Shown: positions 27,644 through 63,989 of the stretch, one piece after another
How positions within the stretch are numbered: position 1 is the first letter of the stretch
Layout of the letters: every line of letters begins with the position of its first letter
Origin: Escherichia coli
Lineage (GTDB): Bacteria > Pseudomonadota > Gammaproteobacteria > Enterobacterales > Enterobacteriaceae
Assembly (NCBI RefSeq): GCF_003334405.1
Contig: NZ_QOWM01000018.1
Direction: 5' to 3' (one strand)
Length of the DNA stretch: 64,000 nt
Position numbers and translations under genes: made by a program
Notes under the pieces: generated by a model
Databases searched by the model: none
What the model was told of the DNA's origin: nothing
What the model saw: only the letters and a program-made list of their open reading frames with translations

Positions 27644-27666
27644 ATTACAACAGATAACTTATGCCG

Positions 27667-28889: not shown

Positions 28890-29042
28890 ACATCTGTTGT
28901 TTCTCAAAATCCGCCCGACATGCCCGTCACACCGGGGAAACTCATGCTCTGAATCAGAACCAACCATCTCAACTTTGCCGTCTCCTGAAAAAACTGGCAC
29001 ATTCAGTTCGATAACTACCCATAAATACAGAGAGAAAATCCG

Positions 29043-29294
29043 ATGTCAGAAAAGTGGAGTAAAGAATTCGACTCTTGCTTTCAGGTGGGGAGCATAGAAG
29101 AAATTGCCGATGCTCTCGAGAAACGCAGCGGAAGCGAGGAAAATGCGTTAGCCATGCTGGCAATGACAGCCTTCACACTCATGACCCGACGTGGTATCTG
29201 CGAAATGCAGAACGTGGCCCCCGATGGCAAAGGCATTCGGCTGGAGCTAATGGGCTTCAGGGAAAATGAAACAATACCGGATACGCTTCATTGA
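29043..29294 (+). CDS. hypothetical protein
   Basis: 83-aa ORF convergent with pndA. Confidence 0.35.
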   Translation: MSEKWSKEFDSCFQVGSIEEIADALEKRSGSEENALAMLAMTAFTLMTRRGICEMQNVAPDGKGIRLELMGFRENETIPDTLH

Positions 29295-29365
29295 AGAAGA
29301 AAGGGCGCAATGAGGTCAGCCTTCGCAACAAAGCGGCGGCAGAAAACCTGCCGCCGTGTTGCCCG

Positions 29366-29521
29366 TTAACGTTTAACTTCGTAGGCTAACGTTGCCACAA
29401 GCACTGTGTTTCCCTGCTGGAGCCGGAGTCCGCAAAGCGAATCCCTCACCATCCAAACAAAACACAGAATCGTCACACAGATGACGATTAACATCATTAA
29501 AAACGTTCGCTGTGGCATCAT
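29366..29521 (-). CDS. pndA: Hok/Gef-family type I toxin PndA
   Basis: translated by hand: MMPQRTFLMMLIVICVTILCFVWMVRDSLCGLRLQQGNTVLVATLAYEVKR, GGAGG RBS; not in ORF track (under 60 aa); overlapped by longer pndC/mok-like frame 29373-29657. Confidence 0.8.
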   Translation of the reverse strand: MMPQRTFLMMLIVICVTILCFVWMVRDSLCGLRLQQGNTVLVATLAYEVKR

Positions 29522-29809
29522 AGCCCCTCCATTGCCTTACGGCGGTTATCGGGCTACTATAATGTTGTCTAGGCATTACAGTAGAGCCCTTGGTTGATTG
29601 ATAAAAAAATCTCCAGGGGCTTTCTGCTGTATACCGTCCACAAAACGCTTTCGGCATACAGCCTCAAGCGCCCGCAGCTATTCTAACGACTTTCGTATCT
29701 GCAACAATCCTTTTATCGCACGGCTAATTCCTCTGGTTAGCTCTTATCGCCTGCAAATAAATTTTTAACCTTTCCGTTTGATTTAAATTCCAGAAATGGA
29801 GACTTTGTC

Positions 29810-31018: not shown

Positions 31019-31036
31019 TTATCCGGAGAACTGAAA

Positions 31037-32107
31037 ATGACAATCGAGTACTTTGCAACACGCATTGCAAAACATATTTCCGTGCAGGCAATCTGGCCGG
31101 ATGGCAGGACAGAAATTATTGCCGTCCTTCCACGGGATGCCCTGTCAGGGCTGGTAACACGAAATAATCAACTGATTCATATAGCCTTTGACGCCATGGG
31201 CACCCGTAACAGAGAAACCGTCCTGATTGATAAACAGGAGCATAACGCTGACCAGATACTTACAGCTATTGATTCCTGCCTGCGTCTTGAATACCTGATG
31301 GAACGCCGCTTCAGCAGAACACCTTTGTTCCGTGGCATAATCGCCAGCGTTGTGCTGTTCGTAATGGCAACGATTGGCTTCTCTCTGTTCCGCTATGTTG
31401 ATCGTGTATTCTGGGATGATACAACGCCTGAAGCAGTACAGACAGCAGCTGAGCCACGACTGCTTCCCCCTCACCTGAATCACACTGTGCCATTAAATGA
31501 AGGCATTCAACTCCCGGTTCCCCCGAAAAAAGACGTCCAGGTACCGGAGAAAACAATCACAAGCAAAAATCCGGAAGCCGCAGCTGCGCGACATAATCTG
31601 GCTACTGTTCTGAAGCGGAACGCCGATCGGGGCATGTTTACCATCAACCTGTCATCCGGTCATGAACGAACCCTGTACGCATTTCTCGATCCTGCCTGTC
31701 CTAACTGCAGACTTCTGGAGCCGGCCTTAAAACGCCTGGCCAGCGACTTCAATGTCGTTATCTACCCGGTTTCAGTTATTGGTGGAGAGGAATCCACCGA
31801 CCGTGTGGCACCACTGCTGTGTGAAAAAGATGCTCAGAAACGTGCTGCCGGCTGGCACCGACTGTATTCCGCAGATAACGGAATGATGACGCCATCAGAA
31901 GAAACAACGCCTGCAGATGAAACATGCCTGAAAGCGGCCAGAGCTGCAATTGATGTAAACAATGTCGCCTTCCGTAAGTTCGGATTTGCCGGTACCCCAT
32001 GGGTGCTGTCCGACACCGGCTGGCATCTGCCTACAGGAATTCTGCAGGAAACTGGCACGCTTAATTTATTCCTGAAAACCACCGACAGCGAGTCTGGCCA
32101 TGAGTGA
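31037..32107 (+). CDS. trbB: thioredoxin-fold protein (disulfide isomerase-like) of transfer system
   Basis: TM anchor plus CxxC motif DPACPNCRLL. Confidence 0.65.
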   Translation: MTIEYFATRIAKHISVQAIWPDGRTEIIAVLPRDALSGLVTRNNQLIHIAFDAMGTRNRETVLIDKQEHNADQILTAIDSCLRLEYLMERRFSRTPLFRGIIASVVLFVMATIGFSLFRYVDRVFWDDTTPEAVQTAAEPRLLPPHLNHTVPLNEGIQLPVPPKKDVQVPEKTITSKNPEAAAARHNLATVLKRNADRGMFTINLSSGHERTLYAFLDPACPNCRLLEPALKRLASDFNVVIYPVSVIGGEESTDRVAPLLCEKDAQKRAAGWHRLYSADNGMMTPSEETTPADETCLKAARAAIDVNNVAFRKFGFAGTPWVLSDTGWHLPTGILQETGTLNLFLKTTDSESGHE

Positions 32108-34391
32108 ACATCGCGTTAACCCCGAGCTTTTACACCGTACAGCCTGGGGAAATCCTGTCTGGAATGCACTCCAGAGTCTCAATATCTATGGCTTTTGCCT
32201 GGTGGCAAGTCTTGTGGCCAGTTTTATCTGGCCACTTGCATTACCGGCATGTCTGTTGTTCACACTGATAACAATGCTGGTATTTAGTCTGCAGCGATGG
32301 CGCTGCCCTCTTCGTATGCCCATGACGCTGGAATGTGCTGATCCGTCACAGGACAGAATGATTAAAAGAAGTCTTTTCAGCTTCTGGCCAACCCTGTTCC
32401 AGTATGAGGTCATTCTGGAATCACCGGCCAGCGGCATATTCTATGTTGGTTATCAACGCGTCAGGGATATTGGCAGGGAGTTATGGCTGAGTATGGACGA
32501 TCTGACCCGCCATATAATGTTTTTCGCCACCACCGGTGGCGGTAAAACGGAAACCATCTTTGCCTGGGCGATTAACCCACTTTGCTGGGCAAGAGGATTC
32601 ACCCTTGTCGATGGCAAGGCACAGAATGATACGGCAAGAACGATCTGGTATCTGGCCAGACGCTTTGGACGTGAAGACGATGTGGAAGTCATTAACTTCA
32701 TGAACGGAGGAAAATCCCGCAGTGAAATCATTCTGAGTGGTGAAAAAACGCGTCCTCAGTCAAATACCTGGAATCCCTTCTGTTACAGCACTGAGGCATT
32801 CACAGCGGAGACAATGCAGTCAATGCTGCCCCAGAACGTCCAGGGGGGCGAGTGGCAGTCCCGGGCCATTGCCATGAACAAGGCACTGGTATTTGGTACT
32901 AAATTCTGGTGTGTGCGCGAAGGCAAAACAATGTCGCTGCAGATGCTCCGTGAACATATGACTCTCGAAGGAATGGCCAAACTTTACTGTCGTGGCCTCG
33001 ATGATCAGTGGCCGGAAGAAGCTATCGCACCGTTACGTAACTACCTTCAGGACGTTCCCGGCTTCGACCTGTCGCTGGTCAGGACACCATCAGCCTGGAC
33101 GGAAGAACCCAGAAAACAACATGCTTATCTCTCCGGGCAGTTTTCTGAAACTTTCAGCACATTCACGGAAGCATTCGGAGATATTTTTGCTGAAGATTCC
33201 GGTGATATCGATATCCGTGACAGCATTCACAGCGACAGGATTCTGATGGTAATGATCCCCGCTCTGGATACATCAGCGCATACAACGTCTGCTCTTGGAC
33301 GAATGTTTATCACCCAGAAAAGTATGATTCTCGCCCGTGATTTGGGCTATCGCCTCGAAGGAACTGATTCCGATGCACTGGAAGTCAAAAAATATAAGGG
33401 GCGTTTCCCTTATCTGTGTTTCCTTGATGAAGTGGGGGCATACTATACGGACCGTATTGCTGTGGAAGCCACTCAGGTGCGTTCACTGGATTTTGCTCTG
33501 ATTTTGATGGCACAGGACCAGGAACGTATAGAAGGACAGACAACAGCCACGAATACGGCAACACTGATGCAGAACACGGGGACAAAATTTGCCGGCAGGA
33601 TTGTCAGCGAGGGCAGTACGGCCAGAACGCTGAAAAGCGCCGCCGGTGAAGAAGCCAGGGCGAGGATGAACAACCTGCAGCGTCAGGACGGCATATTTGG
33701 TGAATCATGGATTGACAGCCCACAAATCAGCATCCTGATGGAAAGTAAGATAGATGTTCAGGAGTTGATTGAACTTCATCCTGGCGAGTTCTTTTCTATT
33801 TTCCGGGGAGAAACCGTACCATCAGCATCATTCTTCATCCCTGACAATGAGAAAAGCTGCAGTAGCGATCCCGTTGTTATAAACAGGTATATCAGCGTGG
33901 ATGTACCTCGCCTGGACCGTCTCCGCCGTCTGGTTCCCCGTACAGCTCAACGTCGAATCCCGTCACCGGAAAATGTCAGTGCCATCATTGGCGTCCTGAC
34001 TGCAAAACCCTCCAGAAAAAGACGAAAAATTCGCACAGAGCCGCACACGATCGTGGATACATTCCAGCAACGCATTGCAGGACGTCAGGCGGCTATGGCA
34101 ATGCTGGAAGAGTACGACACGGATATCAACGCACGTGAAAGTGCCTTGTGGGAAACAGCGGTGAATACGCTTAAAACGACCACACGGGAAGAGCGACGAA
34201 TTCGCTATATCACGCTGAACAGGCCAGAACTACCTGAAACAAAAGAGGAAAATCAGATATCAGTGAGAGCAGAAAGAGCAGGTATAAACCTGTTAACGCT
34301 TCCACAGGACAATACCCCCCCGACAGGGCGTCCTGTAAACGGGTTTCATCATAAAAAAACCAACCGTCCGGACTGGGACGGAATGTACTGA
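32100..34391 (+). CDS. trbC: type IV coupling-protein-like ATPase (DotL-like)
   Basis: N-terminal TM helices, Walker A FFATTGGGKTE. Confidence 0.7.
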   Translation: MSEHRVNPELLHRTAWGNPVWNALQSLNIYGFCLVASLVASFIWPLALPACLLFTLITMLVFSLQRWRCPLRMPMTLECADPSQDRMIKRSLFSFWPTLFQYEVILESPASGIFYVGYQRVRDIGRELWLSMDDLTRHIMFFATTGGGKTETIFAWAINPLCWARGFTLVDGKAQNDTARTIWYLARRFGREDDVEVINFMNGGKSRSEIILSGEKTRPQSNTWNPFCYSTEAFTAETMQSMLPQNVQGGEWQSRAIAMNKALVFGTKFWCVREGKTMSLQMLREHMTLEGMAKLYCRGLDDQWPEEAIAPLRNYLQDVPGFDLSLVRTPSAWTEEPRKQHAYLSGQFSETFSTFTEAFGDIFAEDSGDIDIRDSIHSDRILMVMIPALDTSAHTTSALGRMFITQKSMILARDLGYRLEGTDSDALEVKKYKGRFPYLCFLDEVGAYYTDRIAVEATQVRSLDFALILMAQDQERIEGQTTATNTATLMQNTGTKFAGRIVSEGSTARTLKSAAGEEARARMNNLQRQDGIFGESWIDSPQISILMESKIDVQELIELHPGEFFSIFRGETVPSASFFIPDNEKSCSSDPVVINRYISVDVPRLDRLRRLVPRTAQRRIPSPENVSAIIGVLTAKPSRKRRKIRTEPHTIVDTFQQRIAGRQAAMAMLEEYDTDINARESALWETAVNTLKTTTREERRIRYITLNRPELPETKEENQISVRAERAGINLLTLPQDNTPPTGRPVNGFHHKKTNRPDWDGMY

Positions 34392-34396
34392 ACATA

Positions 34397-34429
34397 GGCC
34401 GCGCCGGATTCTGGCGCGGCCTTTTTTTT
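34397..34429. terminator. bidirectional terminator between convergent trbC and nikB
   Basis: AGGCCGCGCC-loop-GGCGCGGCCT hairpin followed by T8. Confidence 0.6.
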
Positions 34430-37127
34430 AACCTGGAGAAGGCGGTTCCCAGCGTTTATCCTGCTCCGGCGGAGGCAGTGATGCGTCATCGTTGCTGTTC
34501 GCCGCGATATAATCGCGGTAGTAGCGTTCACTTCCTTCACGGTGATGATCCACGTCCGGTCGCGTAATCCTGTAGTCTTCGTGACCGGTACGGCCTGTCA
34601 CATTATGCCAGGCAACCATTTCAGCAAAGACCTGGTTAAATTGTTTGTCGTTTCCTTCTGGTTCAAAACCCATGCGTGGATCACGCCCGAATAATACCGG
34701 TGCAATCAAATCCAGTTTATCTGCCAGCGCATTGCGGTCATGGTGATTACGGAAAACAACCCTGTCACCATAATCCGTACAGACAAACTCTCCCGTCCGA
34801 CGGTCACGGAAACGAACACTCCCGTTCTTCTGCAGACGGGCCTCGAGATCACCGGTATTACCGTATACCGGCGTTCCGCCCGGTTCACAAAGCACGACAC
34901 AGCGGTCTGTCGTCGTTGTGCGTGACTTGTCTTTACGGCGATCGCGATAATCCCAGCCTCTCAGCTGCGATACAGCAGCCCTGTCTCCCTGAGCAGCCTG
35001 AATTTCGACCCACTGACGGTAAGAGGGTGGATACCACTTCCCGTCAGCAATAAGTTTCTGTCGCTCATCCCTGATGTCTTCTTTCAGTCTGATCAATGCC
35101 TGCATTCGCTGAACTTCTGCAATGTGATAATGCAGCTTACGTAATGCCGGATCATCGTACTGCGCACGAATGTGTGACTTCCGCAGACGGCATGCCTGAT
35201 GAATTTCCCGACAACGTTCCCCATAACGCAGATCCGGTTTACGCCATTGTTCACGCCATGCCAGATAGCGGGCACGCAGGTCAGCACGGGCCTCAGCCCT
35301 GGCTTCACGTCGCTGCCGGCGCAGCATTGGATCACGTTTACTGCTGACCCCGTACCTGTCACTGACAGCCAGCTCCGGGTTATAGCGATTTTCAGGTTGC
35401 ACCCTGTCAAACAAATCTGCTGGGGCACTCACAAAAGGTCCGGCCTGTGGCTCCGCACGCCCCAGTGTCAGATCAGGATGAATGCTGCTGGCTTTCACCG
35501 GCGTTTGCTCATGATTAAAGGCATCAACGACAACAAGCCCGTGATGTTGTTTCTGTAGCATCAGTCCCTGTTGTGCAAACAGCTCATGACAACGCTGCCA
35601 GGTAAACTCACCCTGTGTGATCATTTCTTCAATCTGAGGGCTACAATGGCTGATGCTGTATCCCCACAGACTTTCTTTGTCAGAAAACAGTTCGCGTTTG
35701 ATAGCCCCCTGCGGCCCCGTACCTGTACGCATACGGTGCCATTCTTTATCGGTCGCAGGACAGCTCTCCATACGACGACCACGGAAGCGTTCTGTTGGCG
35801 TAACCTGGCGAAAAATATCTGTTGGTACAGGCTGCCAGCCACCATCGAGTTGATTCACATTGTCGAGCGTCAGCAGTGACCATACGCTGTCAGCACGAAC
35901 GGGAGTCTGGTTATGATCATAACCGTCACAGATAACCAGGTGACCATGCTGAACACGCATCCATAATCCCGCTTCAGCCAGTGTGCGGTGAATAGCCTGG
36001 CAGTTTTCCAGCCGTCCTTCCCGTGCCATTTCCGGCAGACGTTCTCCAAGATGACGACAGGCATACTGCTGCAGACTTTCTGTTTCAGCGATTTTTTCCG
36101 GGCGAACATCAGCTGCAATGAAGTCCGGATTATAGCGTCCTGGTGCTTCCACCTGGCTGAAAATGTCTTTTGGTACTGGCGTGTAGTCACCCATTTTTTT
36201 CATGAGTTTTTCTGCACACCAGGAAGGGCCAAACGAGTCAAGCTGTACACCTTCCCTGTTGCGATCCCAGCCATCCATCACCAGAAATTTTCCGTCCATC
36301 TGAGACAGGTACAGACCATCTTCAGCAAGACGACGATGCAGGGATAACCAGTCATGTACAGGTTCACTGCGTAAACCAGCTACCGCTGTCTGCGCAACAT
36401 ACTCGCGAAAAGTTTGTTTTCTCCCGCGTGTCCACGCGTTCTGGCGATCACGTTCAACGGCGGTTTTGCGAACGATACGATTTCCCGGTGCATGGACCCA
36501 GCAACCGTTATCCGGAGCAAAACCATGCTTCAGTTCAAGCTCACGGCAGGCACGACTGAGTTTTTCCTGACTCCAGGATAACCGGTTCAGATAACCCGTT
36601 TCAGGGTGTACCCGGTTAACAGCCACATGGGCGTGCAGATTATCTGTATCAGTATGCACGGCAGAGACATACTGATGGTCGGCAAGGCCGAGTGATTTCA
36701 GCGTATGACGTACACTGTCATAAATCTGTTCCGGACGCGGGCTTTCATGTGACTGCCAGGAAAGGATGTAGTGAAAAACAGGATCAGTGTCATCTTTTGC
36801 ATAGTGTGCCTGCCGGGCAATGTACTCCATATCTGCAGCGGCAGTTTCAAGAGAAGTACAGTTATGAAAGCAGGTGACACCATAAAAGTTGACCCATTCG
36901 CAGCCGTCCTTCATGACATCAACCAGCGCCACGAATGACTCATTTCGAAGACGTGTCGCATAATCAACAAGGCGACTGAAACGGCTTCGGTGCGGTTGTT
37001 CAGCCTGCGAAGAAGAAGATAAATCCAGTTCCTCATCGGTCATGTCATCCCGGACAGAGACGTAGGATACCAGGTCTTCGAACGAAGACTTGCCGTCCCT
37101 TCTCTTTTTCGGAATGACTGCATTCAC
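34428..37127 (-). CDS. nikB: oriT relaxase NikB (MOBP family)
   Basis: 899 aa; histidine motif HTDTDNLHAHVAVNRVHPETG; adjacent to nikA and oriT. Confidence 0.85.
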   Translation of the reverse strand: MNAVIPKKRRDGKSSFEDLVSYVSVRDDMTDEELDLSSSSQAEQPHRSRFSRLVDYATRLRNESFVALVDVMKDGCEWVNFYGVTCFHNCTSLETAAADMEYIARQAHYAKDDTDPVFHYILSWQSHESPRPEQIYDSVRHTLKSLGLADHQYVSAVHTDTDNLHAHVAVNRVHPETGYLNRLSWSQEKLSRACRELELKHGFAPDNGCWVHAPGNRIVRKTAVERDRQNAWTRGRKQTFREYVAQTAVAGLRSEPVHDWLSLHRRLAEDGLYLSQMDGKFLVMDGWDRNREGVQLDSFGPSWCAEKLMKKMGDYTPVPKDIFSQVEAPGRYNPDFIAADVRPEKIAETESLQQYACRHLGERLPEMAREGRLENCQAIHRTLAEAGLWMRVQHGHLVICDGYDHNQTPVRADSVWSLLTLDNVNQLDGGWQPVPTDIFRQVTPTERFRGRRMESCPATDKEWHRMRTGTGPQGAIKRELFSDKESLWGYSISHCSPQIEEMITQGEFTWQRCHELFAQQGLMLQKQHHGLVVVDAFNHEQTPVKASSIHPDLTLGRAEPQAGPFVSAPADLFDRVQPENRYNPELAVSDRYGVSSKRDPMLRRQRREARAEARADLRARYLAWREQWRKPDLRYGERCREIHQACRLRKSHIRAQYDDPALRKLHYHIAEVQRMQALIRLKEDIRDERQKLIADGKWYPPSYRQWVEIQAAQGDRAAVSQLRGWDYRDRRKDKSRTTTTDRCVVLCEPGGTPVYGNTGDLEARLQKNGSVRFRDRRTGEFVCTDYGDRVVFRNHHDRNALADKLDLIAPVLFGRDPRMGFEPEGNDKQFNQVFAEMVAWHNVTGRTGHEDYRITRPDVDHHREGSERYYRDYIAANSNDDASLPPPEQDKRWEPPSPG

Positions 37128-37137
37128 CGGAGAATCC

Positions 37138-37470
37138 TCAACCTTCCATTAACTGTTTACGCAATGTATTTGTAAGTTCGGTTATGGCAACAAGCACTTC
37201 TGCGTATTCCTTGTCACCGGTTCTTTTTCCCTGAACAAACAGATGCTTCTGCATCCTTCCCAGTCTCATTAACTCCTTCAGAAAAGCATCATCTGTACGG
37301 GAGTTAATTCGCTTATTCAGTGCTGCATTTCGGATGTAAGCAGATACAGTAAGTCCGGAATCTTCAGCTTTTTTCCTGATGGTTTCATCCTCAACAGGAG
37401 AGAATCTGAGTGTCCTGACAACTGTCTTTTGCCGTACCTCACTTTTCTTTCTTACCGCACTATCACTCAC
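37138..37470 (-). CDS. nikA: relaxosome accessory protein NikA (ribbon-helix-helix)
   Basis: 110 aa from GTG 37470 with AAGGAG RBS; sequence VSDSAVRKKSEVRQKTVVRTLRFSPVEDE. Confidence 0.8.
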   Translation of the reverse strand: MSDSAVRKKSEVRQKTVVRTLRFSPVEDETIRKKAEDSGLTVSAYIRNAALNKRINSRTDDAFLKELMRLGRMQKHLFVQGKRTGDKEYAEVLVAITELTNTLRKQLMEG

Positions 37471-37509
37471 TTCAGGCTCCTTACGGGGTGTCGGGGCGAA
37501 GCCCTGACC

Positions 37510-37570
37510 AGATGGCAATTGTAATAGCGTCGCGTGTGACGGTATTACAATTGCACATCCTGTCCCGTTT
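37510..37570 (+). promoter_or_regulatory. oriT: origin of transfer oriT: inverted repeat 37516-37526/37543-37553 and nick-region motif CACATCCTGT at 37554-37563
   Basis: CAATTGTAATA-N16-TATTACAATTG followed by ATCCTG, directly upstream of nikA. Confidence 0.7.
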
Positions 37571-37703
37571 TTCAGGCCATTATAGCCTGTTATTTTTGTG
37601 CATCATAGTCTTATGCAGACGGCAGAGGCAGGGCGCAGCCCTGCCAGGAGGCAGTTTTTGATGATAAAATCAGACTTCAACATGAAACGGAGAGAAAGTG
37701 CCA

Positions 37704-38039
37704 ATGGCTTCTAAAAAATTTTACTCAGATGATGACATCCAGCTGGCAAAAGCTGCCTTATCGGAATTGCCGGACCTCACCGCTCAACGGAAAACATTGC
37801 GTGATTTTCTTGATGCCATTCGTGATGACATCATTGTCCTGGTAAGGACAAAGGGTTATACACTGGCAGATGTTCGTGACACGCTCAAAAATGCAGGGTA
37901 TGAAGTAGGAGAGAAGGCACTTCGTGACATTATTCGGGAAGCAGAATCGAAAAAACCATCCCGCCGTTCTTCCTCTAAAACAGCACCTAAAAAGACAGAT
38001 TCAGCCAGGAAAGATGGCATCGATATGAACAACAATTGA
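37704..38039 (+). CDS. hypothetical protein with Lys/Arg-rich C-terminus
   Basis: 111 aa from ATG 37704, GGAGAG RBS; palindrome TGTGACAATGTCACA right after stop. Confidence 0.45.
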   Translation: MASKKFYSDDDIQLAKAALSELPDLTAQRKTLRDFLDAIRDDIIVLVRTKGYTLADVRDTLKNAGYEVGEKALRDIIREAESKKPSRRSSSKTAPKKTDSARKDGIDMNNN

Positions 38040-38082
38040 TGTGACAATGTCACATCATGTTCTGAGATTATGATGATTACAG

Positions 38083-38122
38083 AAAAAAAAGCCCCGGTAT
38101 AAATACCAGGGCTTTTCTGTTT
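38083..38122. terminator. bidirectional terminator-like hairpin
   Basis: A8-GCCCCGGTAT-loop-ATACCAGGGC-TTTTCTGTTT. Confidence 0.5.
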
Positions 38123-38124
38123 AA

Positions 38125-38973
38125 TCAGACTCGTGGCGGCAATGAACCAGGATAATGCCGTGCAATAATATCATTCAGTTTTTCAACAAGGTCAGGACGC
38201 TTAAAGACAATGTGTACGGTCCCTTTCTGGTAGCCACGCACCGTAAAATATTCCCCTTCTAACAGCTTACCGACATTGTCGCCGTTCCCGAGAAATTCAC
38301 CATACTGCGCCCCGATGCTGCTCCGGAAGTCAGGAACGTTGCGCCCCTCCAGCAGATAAAACGGACGTACCAGGTCATCCAGTGCCTCTCGTCCGCTGCA
38401 GTCCAGCGTCACACGCCCGTTACTCCAGCGGTACAGCAGGTTTTCAATAATGATTTTCTTGCCCAGACGGCATGGATTGTTGGTTCTGTAATCCCATGAC
38501 AGTTTCCTGTAGACATCAATCAGTCCCTGTTCAAATGTCTGCATCTTACTGGCATTCAGATGGCGAAAAGTTGCCAGCACATTGTCCAGGGTGATTTCAG
38601 GACAGGTGTCGCTCATCAGCTGGCTGTTCCACTCATCACGCTGGCATGAACTCATGAAGGTGTACATCCCCGTATCCGTCATCAGGCGGTCCCAGATTTT
38701 ACGGTCGGCAAGACGGGTGATATTCCTTTTCACTTCTTCCGGTTTATCCATGCACCGAATGGAGTCGGTCACGCAGTCTTCAAAACCGTAAAGAAAAATA
38801 TCACCTGACGCATCAAGCAGAATCCTGCGCGCTGTCGCCAGGCATTCCATCGCCTGCATGAACAGTGCAATACCTTCGTTACGCTGCGCGATGATGCGGT
38901 CGATGGCCACAGACGGAATAACATCTGTCGTGCCGGCAGTATTCAGGTCAGCAGTGGGTAAAGTCTGATTCAT
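38125..38973 (-). CDS. hypothetical leading-region protein (oriT-proximal, first minus-strand gene to enter the recipient)
   Basis: 282 aa from ATG 38973 with GAGGAGA RBS; no motif recognised. Confidence 0.6.
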   Translation of the reverse strand: MNQTLPTADLNTAGTTDVIPSVAIDRIIAQRNEGIALFMQAMECLATARRILLDASGDIFLYGFEDCVTDSIRCMDKPEEVKRNITRLADRKIWDRLMTDTGMYTFMSSCQRDEWNSQLMSDTCPEITLDNVLATFRHLNASKMQTFEQGLIDVYRKLSWDYRTNNPCRLGKKIIIENLLYRWSNGRVTLDCSGREALDDLVRPFYLLEGRNVPDFRSSIGAQYGEFLGNGDNVGKLLEGEYFTVRGYQKGTVHIVFKRPDLVEKLNDIIARHYPGSLPPRV

Positions 38974-39014
38974 CACATTGTCTCCTCATCGTCACGACTG
39001 CCGGGTCAGCCAGG

Positions 39015-39330
39015 TCATCTCCCGGAGGAGCGAAGCTCCTTCTGCCGTCCGGGTCTTCGGGGATTTCCCCGCAGTGGACCTTTCCGACGGGGGACGCTCA
39101 CCACGTCACGGGGCAGTTGTCCGGGGGCAGACGCAAAAGTTTTTGACGCCTGCGGCAAAAAGTTTTGTGGCTGGTACATCTCTCCCCTGGATGACTGAAA
39201 CGGGATGTGGTCGTGTATGTACCCCCGGAAAGTCCGTCTGCGGAGAACGGGCCGCAGGGCGGCGGCAGGCAGGCAGAGAGAACTGCGCCATCAGGCGCAG
39301 TGGCCTTACACACCGTAAGGTGTGCAGGGA
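39015..39330. promoter_or_regulatory. structured repeat family 1, copy A (Frpo/ssi-like single-strand promoter candidate), truncated
   Basis: aligns with 41880-42375 and 48225-48728; lies 5' of the minus-strand gene 38125-38973. Confidence 0.55.
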
Positions 39331-39450
39331 GCGCCGCATCCGGCGCGACCGGAGAAAACCGACGGCACAACAACGGCATGCGGTGGTCACTGGTACACCA
39401 CTCCCGCACAGGTGAAAACAGAGAAAACCGCACGACATCTACAACTAAAA

Positions 39451-39552
39451 AAAGTGAAATTTCTTCACTTTTTTACACTTATTTATTGCGTTGATTTGGT
39501 GATTGTGATGATAAAATAAAGTGAAGTTTTTTCACTTTTTCAAAGGTGTTTT
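39451..39552 (+). promoter_or_regulatory. promoter flanked by two palindromic operators AAAGTGAA-N6-TTCACTTT
   Basis: palindromes at 39451-39471 and 39518-39540; -35 TTGATT 39491-39496. Confidence 0.5.
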
Positions 39553-39804
39553 ATGACCGGCTGGGAACTGCGAATCTGGCGAAAAAGCATGCTCTGGTCA
39601 CGCGAAAAAGCGGCCAGAGAATTTGGCGTGACACAGAGAACATGGCACGCCTGGGAAAATGCGGATCAGGTGGATGTCACCGTCTGGAGGACCACCCAGG
39701 CACTTTCAGTCCGTGACCTGCTGCCTCACATGCAGGGGATGCGCAAGGCAGATATCATCAGGCGTCTGGAAAATGAACTGGGGGAAACGGCAGAGGATGT
39801 GTGA
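39553..39804 (+). CDS. small helix-turn-helix (XRE/Cro-like) DNA-binding protein
   Basis: 83 aa; HTH-like segment WSREKAAREFGVTQRTWHAWENA; only plus-strand gene in the leading region. Confidence 0.55.
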   Translation: MTGWELRIWRKSMLWSREKAAREFGVTQRTWHAWENADQVDVTVWRTTQALSVRDLLPHMQGMRKADIIRRLENELGETAEDV

Positions 39805-39834
39805 GCGTGATTCACAGCCTGGCTGAATGCCAGG

Positions 39835-39993
39835 CTACTGCTCATCAGGAAACAGTTTTTTCAGTTCTTCACCGGAAAGTCCGGTCGCCTCCTGAATCCG
39901 TTCCGGCGGCCAGCCCATATCCCGCAGCCGGCAGGCTATTTCCCGCGCCACTTCAAGAGCGCCTTTTTGAATAAGACGTTCTGCAATCGTCAT
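39835..39993 (-). CDS. free-standing RpnS-like small protein (homolog of Rpn C-terminal tail)
   Basis: 52 aa from ATG 39993: MTIAERLIQKGALEVAREIACRLRDMGWPPERIQEATGLSGEELKKLFPDEQ, parallels the last 61 aa of adjacent Rpn. Confidence 0.45.
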   Translation of the reverse strand: MTIAERLIQKGALEVAREIACRLRDMGWPPERIQEATGLSGEELKKLFPDEQ

Positions 39994-40055
39994 GCTGTTT
40001 GCTCTGCTCCTGCTGGCAAAAAAGCCCGGGATTTTGCCGGGCTTTGCGGTTCTCA

Positions 40056-40970
40056 TTAGTGAGTTATTTTCTTCAGTTCGTCATCGGAAAGTCCGGTAGC
40101 CTGCTTAATCTGCTCCGGCGTCATCCCCATTTTCTGAAGCTGGCACGCAATAGCCAGGGCTTTTTCAAGCGCTCCTTCCATGCGTCCTTCCATCCTGCCT
40201 TCCTGGCGACCTTTTTGCTCAAGACGTTCTGCGATAGTCATCAGTTTATCCTCATGCTGCGGCAGACGCTCAGCCAGCGCCCGCATAAATTCCGGTGATA
40301 CAGAGTCCCCTGCGTTAACGATGTAATGAATCAGAACACGCACCTGCTCGTCTGAAATTTCCACCATGACCTGCGGGAGTTTGTCCAGCAGCTCCATCAT
40401 GTCACGATGGCGGATATGCTTCATCAGCAGCGTCAGTGCGGCCATCCGGCGATGGTTCATGATTTCATTGTCATCAACGACAGTGATATCAACCAGCGGA
40501 AACGGCTTTGTGTATATTTTAGCCGCAAGTGCCGGATTCTCAAAACAGTCCAGCCAGTTCATGCTGTACGGATACGGGCTGCGCTCACCATGATAGAACA
40601 GCACCGGAATCACCAGTGGCAACGTTTTGTGCTGCTCCAGATGTCTCTGCATCGCCGCCACACTGTAACGTAACATGCGGAAAGGCATGTACAGATTTTC
40701 GGTGCTCTGGTGCTCGATGAGCGTATAAACATAGCCATCTTCACCCCCGGTGGTTTTCACGCTCCAGAGGATATCGCTGGCGTACTGATGCAGGTCCGGC
40801 TCAACAAAGGTGGCGGGTTCCAGCTTCAGCGTGGACAGGTCGCACAACTGCCGGTACTCCGCCGGAAGATGCAGTTCCAGAAAATCTCTGGCGACGTCGG
40901 GATTCGCCAGGAACGACCGGAACGCGGCATCGTGCGGCGTGGGCGTTGTGGTGTTTTTCTTCTTACTCAC
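40056..40970 (-). CDS. Rpn-family (YhgA-like, PD-(D/E)xK) recombination-promoting nuclease
   Basis: 304 aa from GTG 40970 with AGGAGG RBS; motifs DGYVYTLIEHQSTEN, in-frame internal Met MTIAERLEQKG 61 aa from the end. Confidence 0.65.
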   Translation of the reverse strand: MSKKKNTTTPTPHDAAFRSFLANPDVARDFLELHLPAEYRQLCDLSTLKLEPATFVEPDLHQYASDILWSVKTTGGEDGYVYTLIEHQSTENLYMPFRMLRYSVAAMQRHLEQHKTLPLVIPVLFYHGERSPYPYSMNWLDCFENPALAAKIYTKPFPLVDITVVDDNEIMNHRRMAALTLLMKHIRHRDMMELLDKLPQVMVEISDEQVRVLIHYIVNAGDSVSPEFMRALAERLPQHEDKLMTIAERLEQKGRQEGRMEGRMEGALEKALAIACQLQKMGMTPEQIKQATGLSDDELKKITH

Positions 40971-41034
40971 GGTTCCTCCTGGTGAGATGTCTGAACGTAT
41001 CCTGCCGCCTGCACAGGCAGACGGCAAGGGTTAA

Positions 41035-41301
41035 TCAGTGGCAGACCCGCTCAATTTCAAGCGCGCGGAGCAGGTGGCCCCATTCGCTGACTTTCATGGC
41101 GGGGATACGCACCCGCTTCTGCTCACTGCAGCGTCTGGCGATATGGCCGCTCATCGCCAGGACGTCCGGGTTAATCTCATCCTGTGCCAGCTCCTGACGT
41201 CTGAAGCGGGTATGGCGGTGCAGGGGTTTATTCTCCCGCAGGCACTCTTCACGCAGACGCTTTACATACTCGGCGGTTGCGAAGATAATTGATGGTCTCA
41301 T
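41035..41301 (-). CDS. hypothetical leading-region protein
   Basis: 88 aa, GGAGA RBS. Confidence 0.5.
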   Translation of the reverse strand: MRPSIIFATAEYVKRLREECLRENKPLHRHTRFRRQELAQDEINPDVLAMSGHIARRCSEQKRVRIPAMKVSEWGHLLRALEIERVCH

Positions 41302-41394
41302 GGCATAATCTCCATAGATAGTGATTGAGATGCCGGACTTCCTGGCGGGGAAGCGCCGGCGGAGAGAGGCAGGGTTTATCGCCCTGCCTCTTTT

Positions 41395-41829
41395 TCATTT
41401 CGGACAGCGACGCAGTGCCAGCGCGAGCGCTTTCATCTTCCAGCCTTCCGGCGTGCGGTACATCACCTTCCAGTAGCCGTCGATGAACACATAATGGAAG
41501 CGCACCTCTTCAGTGCTTTCAGTGGCAATAGCTTCCCTGAAAGAACGGTACTCACGCGCCTCACTGTCCATCCGGAAACCACTGTCACGTCCGTAATAAG
41601 CCGTCACACCGTCCACCGGGTTCTGAAGCGTATGCCCGGCGGGTTTGTCGCAACGGGGACCGAGGCAACGGATATCACCGTGTTCAACCAGGGCTTCGGC
41701 CTGCTGACCGGTGGCATAGTGGGTATGCAGGATGCGACCGTTCCAGGTCGGCTCACCGTGCAGGTGGCAGTAAACGGTACGGAACACCCCGTCGCGGCAA
41801 AAAACGGAAATCGTGCTGCTGACAGTCAT
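41395..41829 (-). CDS. hypothetical leading-region protein
   Basis: 144 aa, AAGGAGA RBS, immediately 3' of repeat copy B. Confidence 0.55.
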   Translation of the reverse strand: MTVSSTISVFCRDGVFRTVYCHLHGEPTWNGRILHTHYATGQQAEALVEHGDIRCLGPRCDKPAGHTLQNPVDGVTAYYGRDSGFRMDSEAREYRSFREAIATESTEEVRFHYVFIDGYWKVMYRTPEGWKMKALALALRRCPK

Positions 41830-41879
41830 GAAAACGTCTCCTTCTGCTGAATCAGGTCGCCGGGCCGACCGGTTGCTCC

Positions 41880-42375
41880 CCGGAGGGGCGAAAGCCCCTT
41901 CTGCCGTCCACTTCTTCGGGGTTTCTCCCCGCAGTGGACCTTTCCGATGGGGCGTCCGTCACCACGTCACGGGGCAGCTGTCCGGGGGCGGACGCAAAAT
42001 TTTTTGCCGGGTTTATGGCTAAAAATTTTGTGGACGGTATATCTTCCCCTGGACTGCTGAAACGGGATGTGGTTACTCCAGCCCCCGGAAAGTCCACAGC
42101 GGGAAACAGGCCGCAGGGGTGGCGGCGGAAGGGTTGACTGCGCCATCAGGCGCAGTTGCCTTACACACCGTCAGGTGTGCAGGGAGCGCCGTTTCCGGCG
42201 CGACAGGGGCGGCGCGACCGGAACGGTCGCTGCAAGCCTGGTTTTTCAGACATCGGACCGTAGCGGCAGCCCGAAACCGCGCCAGCGGGTTCGGCGGAGA
42301 CTGGCGGGTGCGCCAGCAGCTGCCTGTCGGAGTCGGGCCTGACGACCGGATGCCGCCAGGCAGCCGGGAGCCGAA
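41880..42375. promoter_or_regulatory. structured repeat family 1, copy B (Frpo/ssi-like single-strand promoter candidate)
   Basis: ~500 bp, near-identical to 48225-48728; many internal hairpins (CTGCGCCATCAGGCGCAG, CACACCGTCAGGTGTG). Confidence 0.6.
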
Positions 42376-42557
42376 GGTGTCCCCGCCTCCGGAAATCAGA
42401 ACAACAGAAACGACATAACAGAAAAATGCCTCACACCATGACGGGCAGGAAGGGCAGCGCCGCAGGCGCGGCCCTCCTGCATTTCAGGCAGGCGTAAGCC
42501 TGCCAGGGTTTTCCGGCGGCCTGGCAGGCCATACCCCCGCCGGAGCGGGGGAGTAAA

Positions 42558-43058
42558 TCACCGACGGAACACATGACCGTCAATAAAGGTGAAGGAGTCC
42601 AGGAATAAATCCCGCGCATACGCCTCATAGTCAAAATAGAGCGCCACCGTCTCCGGCACGTCAGCCAGCAGGCCGGTATCACTGGCGAACTCAACCGCAA
42701 AAGCCTCCTCACTGTCAGCCTCGCCCCACCAGGCATCGCGGAAGGTGTCAAAATCCGTCTCACCGGTATCATCCACCCAGAGACGATAAGCCTCTTCGCA
42801 GCCTTCATCCCGCGCCTGGCGGAAGCCTTCAACCCAGGCCCAGTTGATATGACATTCAGAGGCCATATTCCCCGGGAATCCCTCATAATCCTGAAACATC
42901 AGTTCAGGATCGGCTTCATCCTGGTGAAGAGCACGGCAGGCGGCGAAAAAGTCGCGCTCATCATCAAACGTGGTCAGGTCAAACCAGCGGCCAGCGATGC
43001 TTCCACAGTTGTATTTGTGCCAGGTTCCAACGTATACAGCAGGGGCAACAACAGACAT
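42558..43058 (-). CDS. ardA: antirestriction protein ArdA (DNA mimic)
   Basis: 166 aa from ATG 43058: [34 protein letters not shown], very acidic. Confidence 0.8.
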
Positions 43059-43085
43059 TCCCGAATCCTCCATAGTCACATGTTC

Positions 43086-43396
43086 TGCGACACCGGGCGG
43101 TGCCGTGCCTCCATAAAAGCCGGGCGATAAGGCGGGGATGCACAGGGCGCAAGGGAAGCCGCAGCCTGACGCACACGGCTGGCGGGAGTTGGAGGGTGAG
43201 ACCGCGAAATCTGAGCGGGTGAACGACCGGAAAATCACGGCAGACGGGAAGGAGGGACCGGGTGACCGCAGCGGCGAAGCGTACCCTTGCATCCCTGCCA
43301 GCCCGGCTAAGATGGAGGCACGGCACAGCCCGCACACGATACGGCGGCCACAGAGCTGAAAACCCACAAGGCCATGCCCCGCATGGCCGGGTAAAA
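43086..43396. repeat. structured repeat family 2, copy 1 (~310 bp, identical to 50040-50349)
   Basis: direct comparison of the two stretches; immediately 5' of ardA. Confidence 0.7.
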
Positions 43397-43520
43397 GCGG
43401 AGCCGCCGGCGACTTCCTTATTCCGGCGAGTGCAGAGGACACGCCGCATGACCTCCAGACCACCCCTGATATGAAACGATCATGATCGGCGTGTCCCTGC
43501 GTAAAATATACATGCCTGGT

Positions 43521-44117
43521 TCACCGGAGAATATCTGTGATATCCACAAGTTTTCTGTCGCGCAGCCAGTCCTGCGCTTCACGCACCACACAACTGTCCG
43601 GTTTCACCGCTTTCAGCGATGATGCCAGTCGCTTGATCAACATCACCAGTTCCCGTGTCTGTATGTCCGGCATTGTCTCCGGCGGAGCAGGGGGACTCTC
43701 ATTTCCGACGCTCATCCCATGCGCTTCCAGTGTGGCACGGACAAACCAGGCGGCATCGACCAGTTGCTGGCGAATCCAGGCCAGATCGGTATTTCTGTCA
43801 CGGGCTGCCATTCGCTCGCCCGACAGCGCCTTGCTGATATGGCTGCGCACCAGATTATCCAGGAGTGCCTGCGCTTCTTCCGGTGAAAAGCCACCTGGTA
43901 TCTCTGTGCGCAACAGCCCTTTCCTGTACAGAAGCTGCAGCAGATCAACCTGCGACCGCACAGCAACTATCAGTACATAACGGACAACATTCGCACTGGC
44001 AGTGGTTTCTGTATCATTCAGCAGTTCTTCCGAATCGTTCCCCCCGGTGTTGCAGAGCAACGGCAACAGAGGTCGCATCCACGCGGGAACCTGGTATTTT
44101 TCGTCTGATTTCATCAT
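43521..44117 (-). CDS. hypothetical leading-region protein
   Basis: 198 aa from ATG 44117, ATGA overlap with psiA stop. Confidence 0.55.
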   Translation of the reverse strand: MMKSDEKYQVPAWMRPLLPLLCNTGGNDSEELLNDTETTASANVVRYVLIVAVRSQVDLLQLLYRKGLLRTEIPGGFSPEEAQALLDNLVRSHISKALSGERMAARDRNTDLAWIRQQLVDAAWFVRATLEAHGMSVGNESPPAPPETMPDIQTRELVMLIKRLASSLKAVKPDSCVVREAQDWLRDRKLVDITDILR

Positions 44118-44833
44118 ATTACGTTCTCCAGCTTGTTCGGGATCATCCACTGCTCAAGTGCACGTACCTGTACCGGTGCACCACGACCGGCCTCACCGGC
44201 TTCAAAAATCAGCCGCCAGAGTGGTTCCTCCTGCCAGAAAAACCGGTCAAATGATGACAGTGATGGAAAACGCCCGCACCACCCCCAGAAAATCGTTTCC
44301 AGATCATGCTCCTCAACAACACCAGACCAGCGGGACAACCAGCTTCCGACCGTGGCGGGAGTATGAAACGCAAGGTCAATCTGCGCCTGAGCAAAACATG
44401 TCTGGTATTCCAGTTCCCGTCGTTCTGCCTCACGTTCCCGCTGGCGGCTGTATTTCTGCTCTGTCAGCGTGGTTTTCTGACGACGACGCTCACCTTCACG
44501 AAAAGGCACGGACGGGAACAGACGGTGCCCCGCATCGGATGGCAGGGGAAGAACACAGACTTCACCAAAACTTTCAATCAGTTTATCCACGGCAGCCAGC
44601 CACAGGAGACGGTTGCCATGAAATTCCTCCTTCGTCAGCGCAGGGGCAAAAAAGCGGAGATCGGTCAGCGAAATCCGGCGACTGCCATTCAGGCAGCGAA
44701 AGAAAGCGGTGGCATAAGGCCATGCTGAAAGTGTGCGTCCCTGACGACGACGTTGTTCTGTGACAGCCACCGCCTGCATGGCGGCCTGTTGTTCTGCGCT
44801 GAGGGGGATCAGTGCCCGTGAACGTGCGCTCAT
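44114..44833 (-). CDS. psiA: plasmid SOS-inhibition protein PsiA
   Basis: 239 aa, [18 protein letters not shown], overlaps psiB stop. Confidence 0.8.
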
Positions 44834-45267
44834 GCCTGACCTCCTTCTGCCATCAGGATATGAATGATGTCGTTAACACTGTATCCCTGCGCATCCAGTG
44901 TCGCGGCAAGCGCCAGCGTGTGACTGATAGCGACAGGCGTGAAGATATGTTGCACCTGAACGACGGCGAAAGGCTGTCCACCACCATTCACCAGAACCAG
45001 CATCCAGAGCTGAGAGACCTCTCCCGGCGAACATAATGCCAGGTGGAAACGTTCGTGGGCTGGCGTGAAACGAACCTGGACGGGGAAAAAGCCCCCGAAC
45101 TCGCTGCCATACTCCCCGTTCATCATCCAGTTAGCCGGTGCGTCCACTTCACGCATCACCTCGTGAGTGAGATTACGGCGCATATCGCTTCCCGCAGCAC
45201 GGATATCTTCATATTCCTGTGCGTTCATGGACTGCAGGGCATTCAGGGTCAGTTCAGTTTTCATCAC
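44830..45267 (-). CDS. psiB: plasmid SOS-inhibition protein PsiB
   Basis: 145 aa, [28 protein letters not shown]. Confidence 0.85.
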
Positions 45268-61053: not shown

Positions 61054-61311
61054 ATGGATGAAGAAAGGGGGTTTTCACTCAGTTATGAACAACTGACCCG
61101 GTTTGCGGAAAAACGCATCCGGGAATGCAATCTGGACAGCCAGGGCGCGATTTATCTCTGCGAGTCAGCCAAAGCCGGAGCCGTGCTGATCTTCTGGCAT
61201 GAACTGGCCATAAATGGCTATGCCTCAATGAATGCCATAAAGAGACAAGAGATCATTGACGCCGACTTTCAGCGCCTCAGAAACCTCATCTGGCCGGAGG
61301 ATGACAGGTAA
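61054..61311 (+). CDS. hypothetical protein
   Basis: 85 aa, preceded by overlapping 19-codon uORF 61002-61061. Confidence 0.45.
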   Translation: MDEERGFSLSYEQLTRFAEKRIRECNLDSQGAIYLCESAKAGAVLIFWHELAINGYASMNAIKRQEIIDADFQRLRNLIWPEDDR

Positions 61312-61901
61312 TGACCCAGAGCCGCCGACCGTCGCCACTGCAGCGGAGAGTGCTGATTGTGCTGGCTGCCCTTGATGAAAAACGGCCGGGCCCCGTGCTG
61401 ACGCGGGACCTGGAACGGGTGCTGGAGCGAAGCGGGGAAGCCCCGGTCTACGGGCCAAACCTGCGCGCCTCCTGCCGTCGTCTGGAGGATGCCGGCTGGC
61501 TGCGTACCCTGCGCGCCCCGAACCTGCAGCTGGCAGTGGAGCTGACGGACGCCGGCCGGGCCGTGGCACAGCCTCTGCTGCTGGCAGAACAGGACCGCAT
61601 CCGGGCAGAACAGCGTGCGGCAGAAGTCGTCGTACTGCCGCTGGTCCCGGCAGCAGGTCTGCCCGCAGGCGGCACTTCTGCCACTGATCTGGCGGTGGAG
61701 CTGAACGGCATGACGTATCAGGCCTGCCGTGGGGATTTTGTGGTGCGTCTCGACGGCAGCACCTGTCTGCAGTTATGGAATAAAGAAGGCAGAGTGGTAC
61801 GCCTGGAGGGCGATCCGCTGGAAGTGGCGCAGTGGCTGCAGGCCTGTCACGATGCCGGAATGGAGGTTCGTGTACAGGTTAATGAAAGCGTCACCCCGTA
61901 A
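61311..61901 (+). CDS. hypothetical winged-helix-like protein in GC-rich island
   Basis: 196 aa, TAATG overlap with upstream ORF; much higher GC than flanks. Confidence 0.5.
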   Translation: MTQSRRPSPLQRRVLIVLAALDEKRPGPVLTRDLERVLERSGEAPVYGPNLRASCRRLEDAGWLRTLRAPNLQLAVELTDAGRAVAQPLLLAEQDRIRAEQRAAEVVVLPLVPAAGLPAGGTSATDLAVELNGMTYQACRGDFVVRLDGSTCLQLWNKEGRVVRLEGDPLEVAQWLQACHDAGMEVRVQVNESVTP

Positions 61902-61966
61902 AAACATGCCAGCACGGTTTACACGTTATCCCATGGTGGCAGCCGGTTAACTTTCCTGCGCCACCA

Positions 61967-62284
61967 GTGGAAAGAGGCCATGCACAGTTAAGTCTTGATG
62001 TTAATCTGCGGCTGTTTTTTGCAATGGCAATCATTGTCTGTGGTTACGGCTATGTAATTATTTATATTTTTATAAAAAATACGCTCGTCTATATTTTAAC
62101 GTTGCCTGGGCTTACATGTCTCAGTTCTTTATTTTCTTTCATGGCATTTAAAGATAACAATATGTGGGTTGATTCTCCTGATTTGACGTTATCAGTAATA
62201 ACAGGCTCTTTTGCGGCTACAGTTATCTTTTATATGTTCTATTTTTTGAGTTATTCCTTTTATCGGATGGGGACGGATGAATAG
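61967..62284 (+). CDS. hypothetical small membrane protein
   Basis: 105 aa, hydrophobic, AT-rich. Confidence 0.35.
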   Translation: MERGHAQLSLDVNLRLFFAMAIIVCGYGYVIIYIFIKNTLVYILTLPGLTCLSSLFSFMAFKDNNMWVDSPDLTLSVITGSFAATVIFYMFYFLSYSFYRMGTDE

Positions 62285-62505
62285 AAAGGCCGATGACCTG
62301 CATTTAAGTAAGCGGCTAACCGTATTGATATTTACTGAGAGCTCAGTTCAACTCTCCAGCGATAACAGATCGCGTTCCCTTCCATGCCGCGCCAGCAGCA
62401 TGGAAGGCGGCATATTATCAACCATGAAAAATCACCTGGCGGAAAATTTACTAATTTATGGATTGTGATATTATTAAAGAGTAGAACAAGCCAGCTGAGG
62501 TATTT

Positions 62506-63099
62506 ATGGGAAAAAATCAGGAAGAAAGGAAGCCCCCCATCATTGTGGTGAAAAAACGTCGTACTTTTTCGCCACCTTCCTTATCCGAAAAAACAGATAT
62601 TATCGCACCTGCATTTACTGAACAGGCGGCAGAATTCCCCCCCGTCGGAATAAATTCATCTGCCGTCGAAAAACATATCCCCGAAGCACCAGCCCGGAAG
62701 AAGAAAAAGAAAAGACATCGTTTCCCACGTCCCGCCCACTGGACCCGTGAGTATACTCACGAGTGCGTGGAAAAAATAAAGACCCTGTTTCCTCATCTTC
62801 GTGCTGAAGGCGGTGGATTTATTCCCCTGAAAATTGGCATCAGCAATGATATTTCGGCATTTCTGGCAGAAAACCCGGATACAGAACTGTCCATGGACGA
62901 ATGGTTCTGTGCAGTGTCCTGCATCACCTCCCGCCGCGTATATCTGCAGCGGACCTCTGTCGCCGGCGTCCCTCGTTATGGGCTGGATGGTCATCCCGAT
63001 GGGCAGGTCTCAGAAACTGAAGCACAGAGTGCTGTTCAAAGACTGGCGATAATAGAACAACGGTGGCTCAGGATGAAGGAACGGCAGACTGAGCAATAA
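62506..63099 (+). CDS. ProQ/FinO-domain RNA-binding protein (FopA/FinO-like)
   Basis: 197 aa; Lys/Arg-rich N-terminus then FinO-like pattern (TLFPHLRAEGGGFIPLKIGISNDISAFLAEN, RRVYLQRTSVAGVPRYGLDGHPDG). Confidence 0.55.
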   Translation: MGKNQEERKPPIIVVKKRRTFSPPSLSEKTDIIAPAFTEQAAEFPPVGINSSAVEKHIPEAPARKKKKKRHRFPRPAHWTREYTHECVEKIKTLFPHLRAEGGGFIPLKIGISNDISAFLAENPDTELSMDEWFCAVSCITSRRVYLQRTSVAGVPRYGLDGHPDGQVSETEAQSAVQRLAIIEQRWLRMKERQTEQ

Positions 63100-63380
63100 A
63101 CATTTCAGATAACATCATGACATTGTGTATCAGAGTCTGCTTACAGACTCATGGATGCCACCAAAGGCTCATCAGATGTAAGGCAGAAGCGACGTAACTG
63201 CCTTTTGAAAGGAAAAAAGCGACCGCAAGGATGCAATGGATATCTGCCGCATACTGAAATAAAGTAACAAAAAAATCACCACAATCACGGGGGCTTCCTT
63301 CCTGTACTCAGGCCATACCCCCCGCCCGGATAAATTTCTCAATCAACAATACAATAAAACTGTGGATAATATCATCATGA

Positions 63381-63989
63381 TTAACGCATAATTACCCGTG
63401 ATTCTTTCCTGGTAACGTAAGTACAGTTATCCGGAACCTCCTCCATAATAAAAGACATGGCTCCAATTTTTACATTACTGCCTATTTTTACGTTAAGCCC
63501 GATAATACACGTATGGGCACCTACATCGACATTATCACCAATAACGATATAATTCTCTCTGCTGTCAGATTCCTTTTCGCCAATGGTCGTATTCTGCCGT
63601 ATAATCACATTCTCACCGATCTTTACATTACCGTGAATGACGACACCTGAATGGTGGGGCAGCACGAGTCCTTTACCAATCTGCGCCCCCAGGCCAATAT
63701 CACATCCATACTTTGCCATAAGCGCATTTTTTATCTTGATCGCACATTTTCGTTGTTTTTTATTCCCCGATATATACATTTCATTAGCCAGACGCCACCA
63801 CAGAAGAAAACCTCTCTGCCTCTGCATACCGTTCCTGATAAGCCGGTGAAAAACAAACTTATCCCGCATGATAACTTCTGCTTTCCAGTATTCCAGAAGA
63901 TGACGTTTTTTTCCTGATAATAAAAATGTACCAATATGGATATAAGAAATAGGATTTTTTATCAGCATACGCAAATTTTCAGAAAACAA
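63381..63989 (-). CDS. hexapeptide-repeat acyl/acetyltransferase (left-handed beta-helix)
   Basis: repeated [LIV]G.N..IG hexapeptides (VVIHGNVKIGENVII, IVIGDNVDVGAHTCIIGLNVKIGSNVKIG); AT-rich; possible internal start at 63869. Confidence 0.6.
   Translation of the reverse strand: MFSENLRMLIKNPISYIHIGTFLLSGKKRHLLEYWKAEVIMRDKFVFHRLIRNGMQRQRGFLLWWRLANEMYISGNKKQRKCAIKIKNALMAKYGCDIGLGAQIGKGLVLPHHSGVVIHGNVKIGENVIIRQNTTIGEKESDSRENYIVIGDNVDVGAHTCIIGLNVKIGSNVKIGAMSFIMEEVPDNCTYVTRKESRVIMR

Follow-up and report, generated by a model that had tools for sequence, protein, structure and literature searches.

The question raised by this locus is which RNA chaperone it encodes and which RNA that chaperone serves. 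The window is the whole stretch of Escherichia coli DNA that was analysed, 64,000 nucleotides long, and the gene lies close to its right end. The sequence-only reading had seen here a FinO-domain protein of 197 aa on an IncI-type plasmid backbone. The ORF is real, and the listing of ATG ORFs gives exactly 62506..63099 on the plus strand. The backbone is also of the kind proposed: window positions 1-25000 and 25000-45000 are 98.6–99.3% identical to IncI plasmids (conjugative, MOBP/MPF_I), and those matched plasmids carry IncI1-type traU, traO, traW, nikB, trbA/B/C and traY. We consider it very probable that this ORF is the orthologue of FopA (YafB), a FinO-domain RNA chaperone of IncI1 (I-complex) plasmids, with the Inc/repZ mechanism proposed below. 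YafB was renamed FopA by Gerovac et al. (RNA 2020; PMC7491321). The gene and its surroundings comprise the following features:

61054-61311, upstream of fopA: conserved hypothetical ORF, 85 aa
61311-61901, upstream of fopA: conserved hypothetical ORF, 196 aa, reaching 70% GC
61967-62284, adjoining fopA upstream: small AT-rich membrane-like ORF, 105 aa, GC down to 36%
62378..62407, plus strand: inverted repeat with 13-nt arms, CCTTCCATGCCGC / GCAGCATGGAAGG, and a 4-nt loop, ~100 nt upstream of fopA (repeat search)
62447..62474, plus strand: candidate sigma-70 promoter, TTTACT-16 nt-TATTAT with an extended -10 TG (consensus scan)
62497..62500, plus strand: Shine-Dalgarno GAGG, 5 nt before the fopA ATG (read from the sequence)
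62506..63099, plus strand: fopA (yafB) orthologue, ATG ORF of 197 aa plus stop
62506..62754, plus strand: N-terminal extension, residues 1-83, predicted disordered as far as residue ~62, carrying two basic stretches
62755..63063, plus strand: FinO/ProQ RNA-binding domain, residues 84-186, including Tyr146 and Arg157 (Pfam, Foldseek)
63180..63206, plus strand: possible fopA terminator, AAGGCAG-11 nt-CTGCCTT followed by TT(G) (RNA folding)
63381-63989, minus strand: hexapeptide acetyltransferase, CysE/EpsC/WcaB-like but under all curated cut-offs, convergent with fopA

The N-terminal extension is rich in Lys and Arg, as had been noticed at the outset. Residues 1-83 hold 19 of these residues, with the runs KKRR at positions 16-19 and RKKKKKRHR at positions 64-72. 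The ProQ/FinO-like pattern that the sequence-only reading saw in the C-terminal region is borne out by the profile search it had proposed, which returns PF04352 rather than an empty result (E=1.5e-12, 47.9 bits, residues 84-186), and the fold agrees. This is the sole Pfam-A domain in the protein, and the match spans model positions 4-102 of 109. A sequence search of the PDB matches only the N-terminal domain of ProQ (5nb9, E=8e-5) and RocC (7rgs, 7rgu and 7rgt, E about 0.02). The AlphaFold2 model, for which a seven-sequence family alignment was the input, is confident over residues 81-196 (pLDDT above 90). Its pLDDT falls below 50 at residues 1-6, 13-16 and 18-62, and residues 1-62 are predicted to be disordered. 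Helices 81-94, 112-122, 130-149 and 170-196 of this model form a helical core, and strands 156-158 and 164-167 form a β-hairpin. All of the best 26 PDB matches from Foldseek belong to FinO-domain proteins, with probability 1.0 (FinO 1dvo, RocC 7rgt and 7rgu, Lpp1663 6s10 and NMB1681 3mw6), with rmsd of 2.2–3.0 Å for most FinO, RocC, Lpp1663 and NMB1681 chains. Tyr146 and Arg157, the conserved key residues of FopA (PMC7491321), are both present and are invariant in the seven-sequence alignment, whose members go down to 33% identity.

The family models of NCBIfam narrow the placement. The ProQ model NF003434 scores 28.3 bits against a curated cut-off of 127 (E about 1e-6) and is matched only at model positions 12-118 of 205, the N-terminal FinO part, and for the FinO model NF010317 the score is 27.6 bits with a cut-off of 136 (E about 1e-6). 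Both scores lie far under the cut-offs, which places the protein, judged by its sequence, within the ProQ/FinO superfamily as neither ProQ nor FinO proper. Identity with ProQ is rejected on the NF003434 score and on the missing ProQ C-terminal domain. Identity with the fertility factor FinO is rejected on the NF010317 score and on the lack of its partner elements FinP and traJ in the window.

The closest described protein is FopA of the Salmonella plasmid pCol1B9_SL1344 (WP_000517689, NC_017718), with 86% identity over 194 aa in a gapless alignment. The gene for this protein is annotated yafB on other IncI1 plasmids. Even closer is WP_080193736 on pRM10042-1 (98.5% identity), which carries only the name 'ProQ/FINO family protein'. 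The pCol1B9 and window proteins share a basic disordered N-terminal extension followed by the FinO domain, both lack the ProQ C-terminal domain, and the KKRR and RKKKKKRHR stretches are identical in the two. This agrees with the published description of FopA, which has neither the FinO N-terminal domain nor the ProQ C-terminal domain and instead has an N-terminal domain of its own with two basic stretches (PMC7491321). Also shared are Tyr146 and Arg157, the kind of plasmid backbone and, judging from the syntenic relatives, the location relative to the replicon (same side, with repZ a few kb away). The window copy differs by 28 of the 194 residues, mostly in the N-terminal linker and the C-terminal helix, and its C-terminus is 3 aa shorter. 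No second FinO-domain gene is found in the window by tblastn. On this assignment the gene encodes an already described protein with a known target RNA, and the window copy leaves the published picture unchanged. The assignment makes a correct annotation possible where the RefSeq name is merely 'ProQ/FINO family protein', and it also points to the partner RNA.

The more distant relatives can be compared in the same terms. FinO of F-like plasmids (1dvo) is the top Foldseek match (E=9e-7, 28% identity over 110 columns) and is alike in its logic, as a plasmid chaperone dedicated to one cis-antisense RNA pair. It differs in its N-terminal region and in its target, FinP/traJ for conjugation, not the replicon. 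Chromosomal ProQ of E. coli and Salmonella and RocC of Legionella also have the FinO domain (target-normalised TM-score 0.71–0.84 for RocC), and they recognize terminator-like hairpins with a 3' U tail. Unlike these, FopA is plasmid-encoded, has a narrow suite of targets and lacks the ProQ linker and the Tudor-like C-terminal domain.

The sequence-only reading expected an antisense RNA partner of the kind used in fertility or copy-number control, and for copy-number control such a partner has been published for the 86%-identical FopA, namely Inc/repZ (PMC7491321). RIP-seq of FopA in Salmonella gives reads dominated by Inc, a cis-antisense RNA of ~70 nt to the repZ leader of the same plasmid, with repZ mRNA co-enriched (PMC7491321). 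Purified FopA has an affinity of about 1 μM for Inc, for the repZ leader and for the complex of the two; it speeds Inc-repZ pairing about sevenfold and shields Inc from RNase (PMC7491321). The chromosomal RNAs STnc1590, STnc700 and mgtM are also pulled down, and no transfer RNA is among the published targets (PMC7491321). Pairing with Inc blocks the leader pseudoknot that is required for translation of repZ (review PMC9977716). By analogy with its pCol1B9 orthologue (PMC7491321), the window protein probably binds RNA and acts as a chaperone.

In the proposed mechanism, the replicon just past the right end of the window would transcribe the ~70-nt antisense Inc from the repY-repZ leader. The FinO domain of FopA would bind and protect Inc, whose long hairpin ends in a short 3' U tail. 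FopA would also speed the kissing-loop pairing of Inc with stem-loop I of the repZ leader. The pairing would prevent formation of the leader pseudoknot, less RepZ initiator would be made, and plasmid copy number would be held down. A role in copy number is stated for FopA in a review (PMC9977716). The main text of PMC7491321 gives no data on fopA deletion or plasmid copy number, and 'copy number' there refers to protein abundance only; we infer that FopA lowers copy number in vivo. FopA-type chaperones would then be part of the restraint on copy number, hence on host cost, in the widespread IncI-complex resistance plasmids.

The earlier observation that no target is evident in the window holds: the Rfam, blastn and motif/hairpin scans find no Inc-like RNA there. 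Rfam, at gathering and at permissive E-value thresholds, reports only sok and AgrB over the window. Blastn with the 7.4-kb and 2.4-kb rep regions of two relatives as queries detects neither rep nor Inc in the window, its sole match being a 29-bp repeat. The scan of the window for hairpins with a UUGGCG or CGCCAA loop gives a single trivial hairpin of 8 bp, located in a tra gene. The partner RNA is probably missing because the window ends about 3 kb before the replicon. The order of genes in the syntenic IncI plasmids pRM10042-1 and p853EC4 is fopA, acetyltransferase, small ORF, yacB-yacA and repA (repZ). The PK-repZ element (Rfam RF01087) scores 194.5 bits in pRM10042-1 and 184.1 bits in p853EC4 and lies ~4.2 kb past the fopA stop. 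If the window plasmid is colinear with these relatives, its repZ leader is at ~67.3 kb in window coordinates, beyond the end at 64000, and judging from the relatives its own replicon would be of the Inc/repZ type. The antisense strand of the repZ leader of a relative folds as a hairpin of 19 bp whose loop contains CGCCAA and whose 3' tail is the U-rich UUUUCCUUU (z=-6.6). This antisense hairpin is of the terminator-like type that FinO domains recognize.

The matched PK-repZ stretch of pRM10042-1, including stem-loop I, is identical to that of pCol1B9. In p853EC4 (13295-13460), stem-loop I, the target of Inc, has several stem differences from pCol1B9, one of them a compensatory change of T-A to A-T. 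Both pRM10042-1 and p853EC4 carry a FopA allele of about 98% identity, so one FopA allele occurs alongside at least two Inc alleles. Rfam matches three other RNA elements. In the window, the sok antitoxin RNA (29516-29673, minus strand, 134 bits in Rfam) and AgrB (28804-28891, plus strand, 58.5 bits in Rfam) are near the trb and nik genes in the oriT-proximal part. Outside the window, p853EC4 has a C4 antisense RNA (Rfam, 77.5 bits) at 14303-14390 on the plus strand, between the replicon and traA.

Two other modes of action have to be weighed for a plasmid protein of this family. The FinO domain itself and the position on a plasmid beside a conjugation system would suit a FinO-like fertility inhibitor, which keeps conjugation in check by means of an antisense RNA to a transfer activator. 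The score of 27.6 bits against the cut-off of 136 speaks against it, as does the absence of transfer RNA from the published FopA targets (PMC7491321). Rfam finds neither FinP nor the traJ 5'UTR in the window, even at the permissive threshold, while the same tool readily finds both on an F plasmid; this reading is extremely unlikely. The other mode is that of PcnR of the IncI2 plasmid pHNSHP45, in which direct binding of a stem-loop in the rep leader mRNA represses the initiator and the antisense RNA is not needed. PcnR is a member of the family (33% identical) encoded beside repA on IncI2 plasmids, and it works independently of antisense RNA (PMC8053102). It resembles the window protein in being plasmid-encoded close to the replicon and in joining a FinO domain to a basic N-terminal extension, and it represses a RepA-type initiator that is under antisense control (PMC8053102). 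The affinity of FopA for a repZ 5'UTR fragment, similar to that for Inc (PMC7491321), is in keeping with such direct binding. The differences are that PcnR binds the repR leader stem-loop and not the antisense RNA, and that its backbone is IncI2 (MPF_T) against IncI1 here. Membership in the PcnR group is rejected at 33% identity to the IncI2-encoded homologue and on the IncI1-type backbone. At 86% identity the window protein is much closer to FopA than to PcnR (33%), and for FopA it is Inc that dominates the RIP-seq, with duplex formation between Inc and repZ sevenfold faster in the presence of FopA (PMC7491321). We therefore regard the PcnR-like mode as rather unlikely here; the two modes are not mutually exclusive, and a mixed mode is possible.

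The distribution of FopA raises a different alternative, a broader clientele that includes CopA of IncFII-type replicons and host sRNAs, with the allele travelling as a small accessory module. FopA and Inc/repZ are claimed to have the same phylogenetic distribution (PMC7491321). The block made up of the two conserved hypothetical ORFs, the small membrane-like ORF, fopA and the hexapeptide acetyltransferase is found again on F-type plasmids of E. albertii, where FopA is 97% identical. For one of these plasmids, pEA24_2 (NZ_CP117622.1; IncFIA/FIC, MOBF), the check covered the full length: CopA (105 bits), FinP, the traJ leader and FinO are all present, and Rfam finds no PK-repZ anywhere on the plasmid. 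The exact FopA protein of pCol1B9 is annotated on another IncFIA/FIC plasmid, p103605_146 (NZ_CP025921.1), and more distant homologues occur on IncK2/Z, IncN/R/X1 (67% identity) and IncFIA/FII plasmids. In PLSDB, ~3,200 plasmids have a FopA-like gene. The F-type carriers are therefore exceptions to the published co-distribution, and since FopA occurs on an F-type plasmid with CopA and without a repZ leader, its linkage to Inc is not obligatory. This occurrence of a 97%-identical FopA is mildly new. In Rfam, the model for CopA gives a weak match to the Inc region (38 bits, E=0.0014), and CopA and Inc are therefore related; a clientele shared between them is conceivable for FopA on these sequence grounds. 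The chromosomal RNAs in the published pull-down would also fit a broader set of targets. Against this, the carriers are mostly I-complex (8 of the 15 checked are typed IncI-gamma/K1 and 2 of 15 IncK2/Z), the window itself has an IncI1 backbone, and the IncF occurrences could be explained as passive hitch-hiking by recombination. The broader clientele is very unlikely as an account of the window protein. A related proposal is that the fopA allele sits in a portable block and that FopA is a general helper for kissing-loop antisense RNAs of the CopA/Inc class, or a trans-acting modulator of co-resident plasmids, as opposed to a dedicated IncI1 factor; we hold this to be unlikely too.

The signals for expression of fopA are modest. 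The -10 hexamer of the candidate promoter at 62447-62474 ends 31 nt before the ATG. Because the consensus scan finds four sigma-70-like sites around fopA against a shuffle expectation of 3.1, i.e. no excess, it is only the position of this site, which is well placed, that argues for it as a candidate promoter. Downstream of the gene, the hairpin at 63180-63204 is present in both the MFE and the centroid folds of 63097-63260 and is followed by a short T run. The terminator scan does not call the hairpin at 63180-63206, whose loop exceeds 8 nt and whose T run is short, and on this weak evidence it may terminate the fopA transcript. The 29-bp core ATGCCGCGCCAGCAGCATGGAAGGCGGCAT (62384-62412) of the upstream inverted repeat recurs in pRM10042-1 (about 11415-11443) and pCol1B9 (2302-2330; extracted-region coordinates for both), where it precedes the gene for the antitoxin YacA. 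The repeat at 62378-62412 may serve as operator, processing site or terminator.

The neighbours of this fopA allele differ from those in pCol1B9, which is mildly new. In pCol1B9, fopA lies between yagA (upstream) and yafA (downstream) and is downstream of the colicin Ib genes, whereas in the window the membrane-like ORF and the acetyltransferase take the place of yagA and yafA. Such an arrangement is uncommon. With a 1.4-kb query, coverage of 80% or more is reached in 19 of 72,556 PLSDB plasmids; with a 3-kb query of the fopA neighbourhood, it is reached in 17 of 5,426 complete E. coli genomes. The top match to these queries is about 98% identical, and no identical copy is present in PLSDB or in the complete E. 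coli genomes. A reading of the neighbourhood as a defence system is rejected, PADLOC being blank for FopA and its neighbours save for an insignificant JetA match (E=0.0033). Composition changes sharply just upstream of fopA (61054-62284), a mosaic with 70% GC beside 36% GC. No NCBIfam family is matched by the 196-aa or the 105-aa ORF. The pair of 85-aa and 196-aa ORFs recurs beside fopA homologues on IncI, IncF and IncN/R/X1 plasmids. In CP057792 (IncFIA/FII; 2463-3704), an 87%-identical acetyltransferase is directly upstream of, and on the same strand as, a FopA-like ORF that is only 36% identical to the window FopA. Taken with the layout in the window, the FinO-like/acetyltransferase neighbourhood thus recurs in two arrangements.
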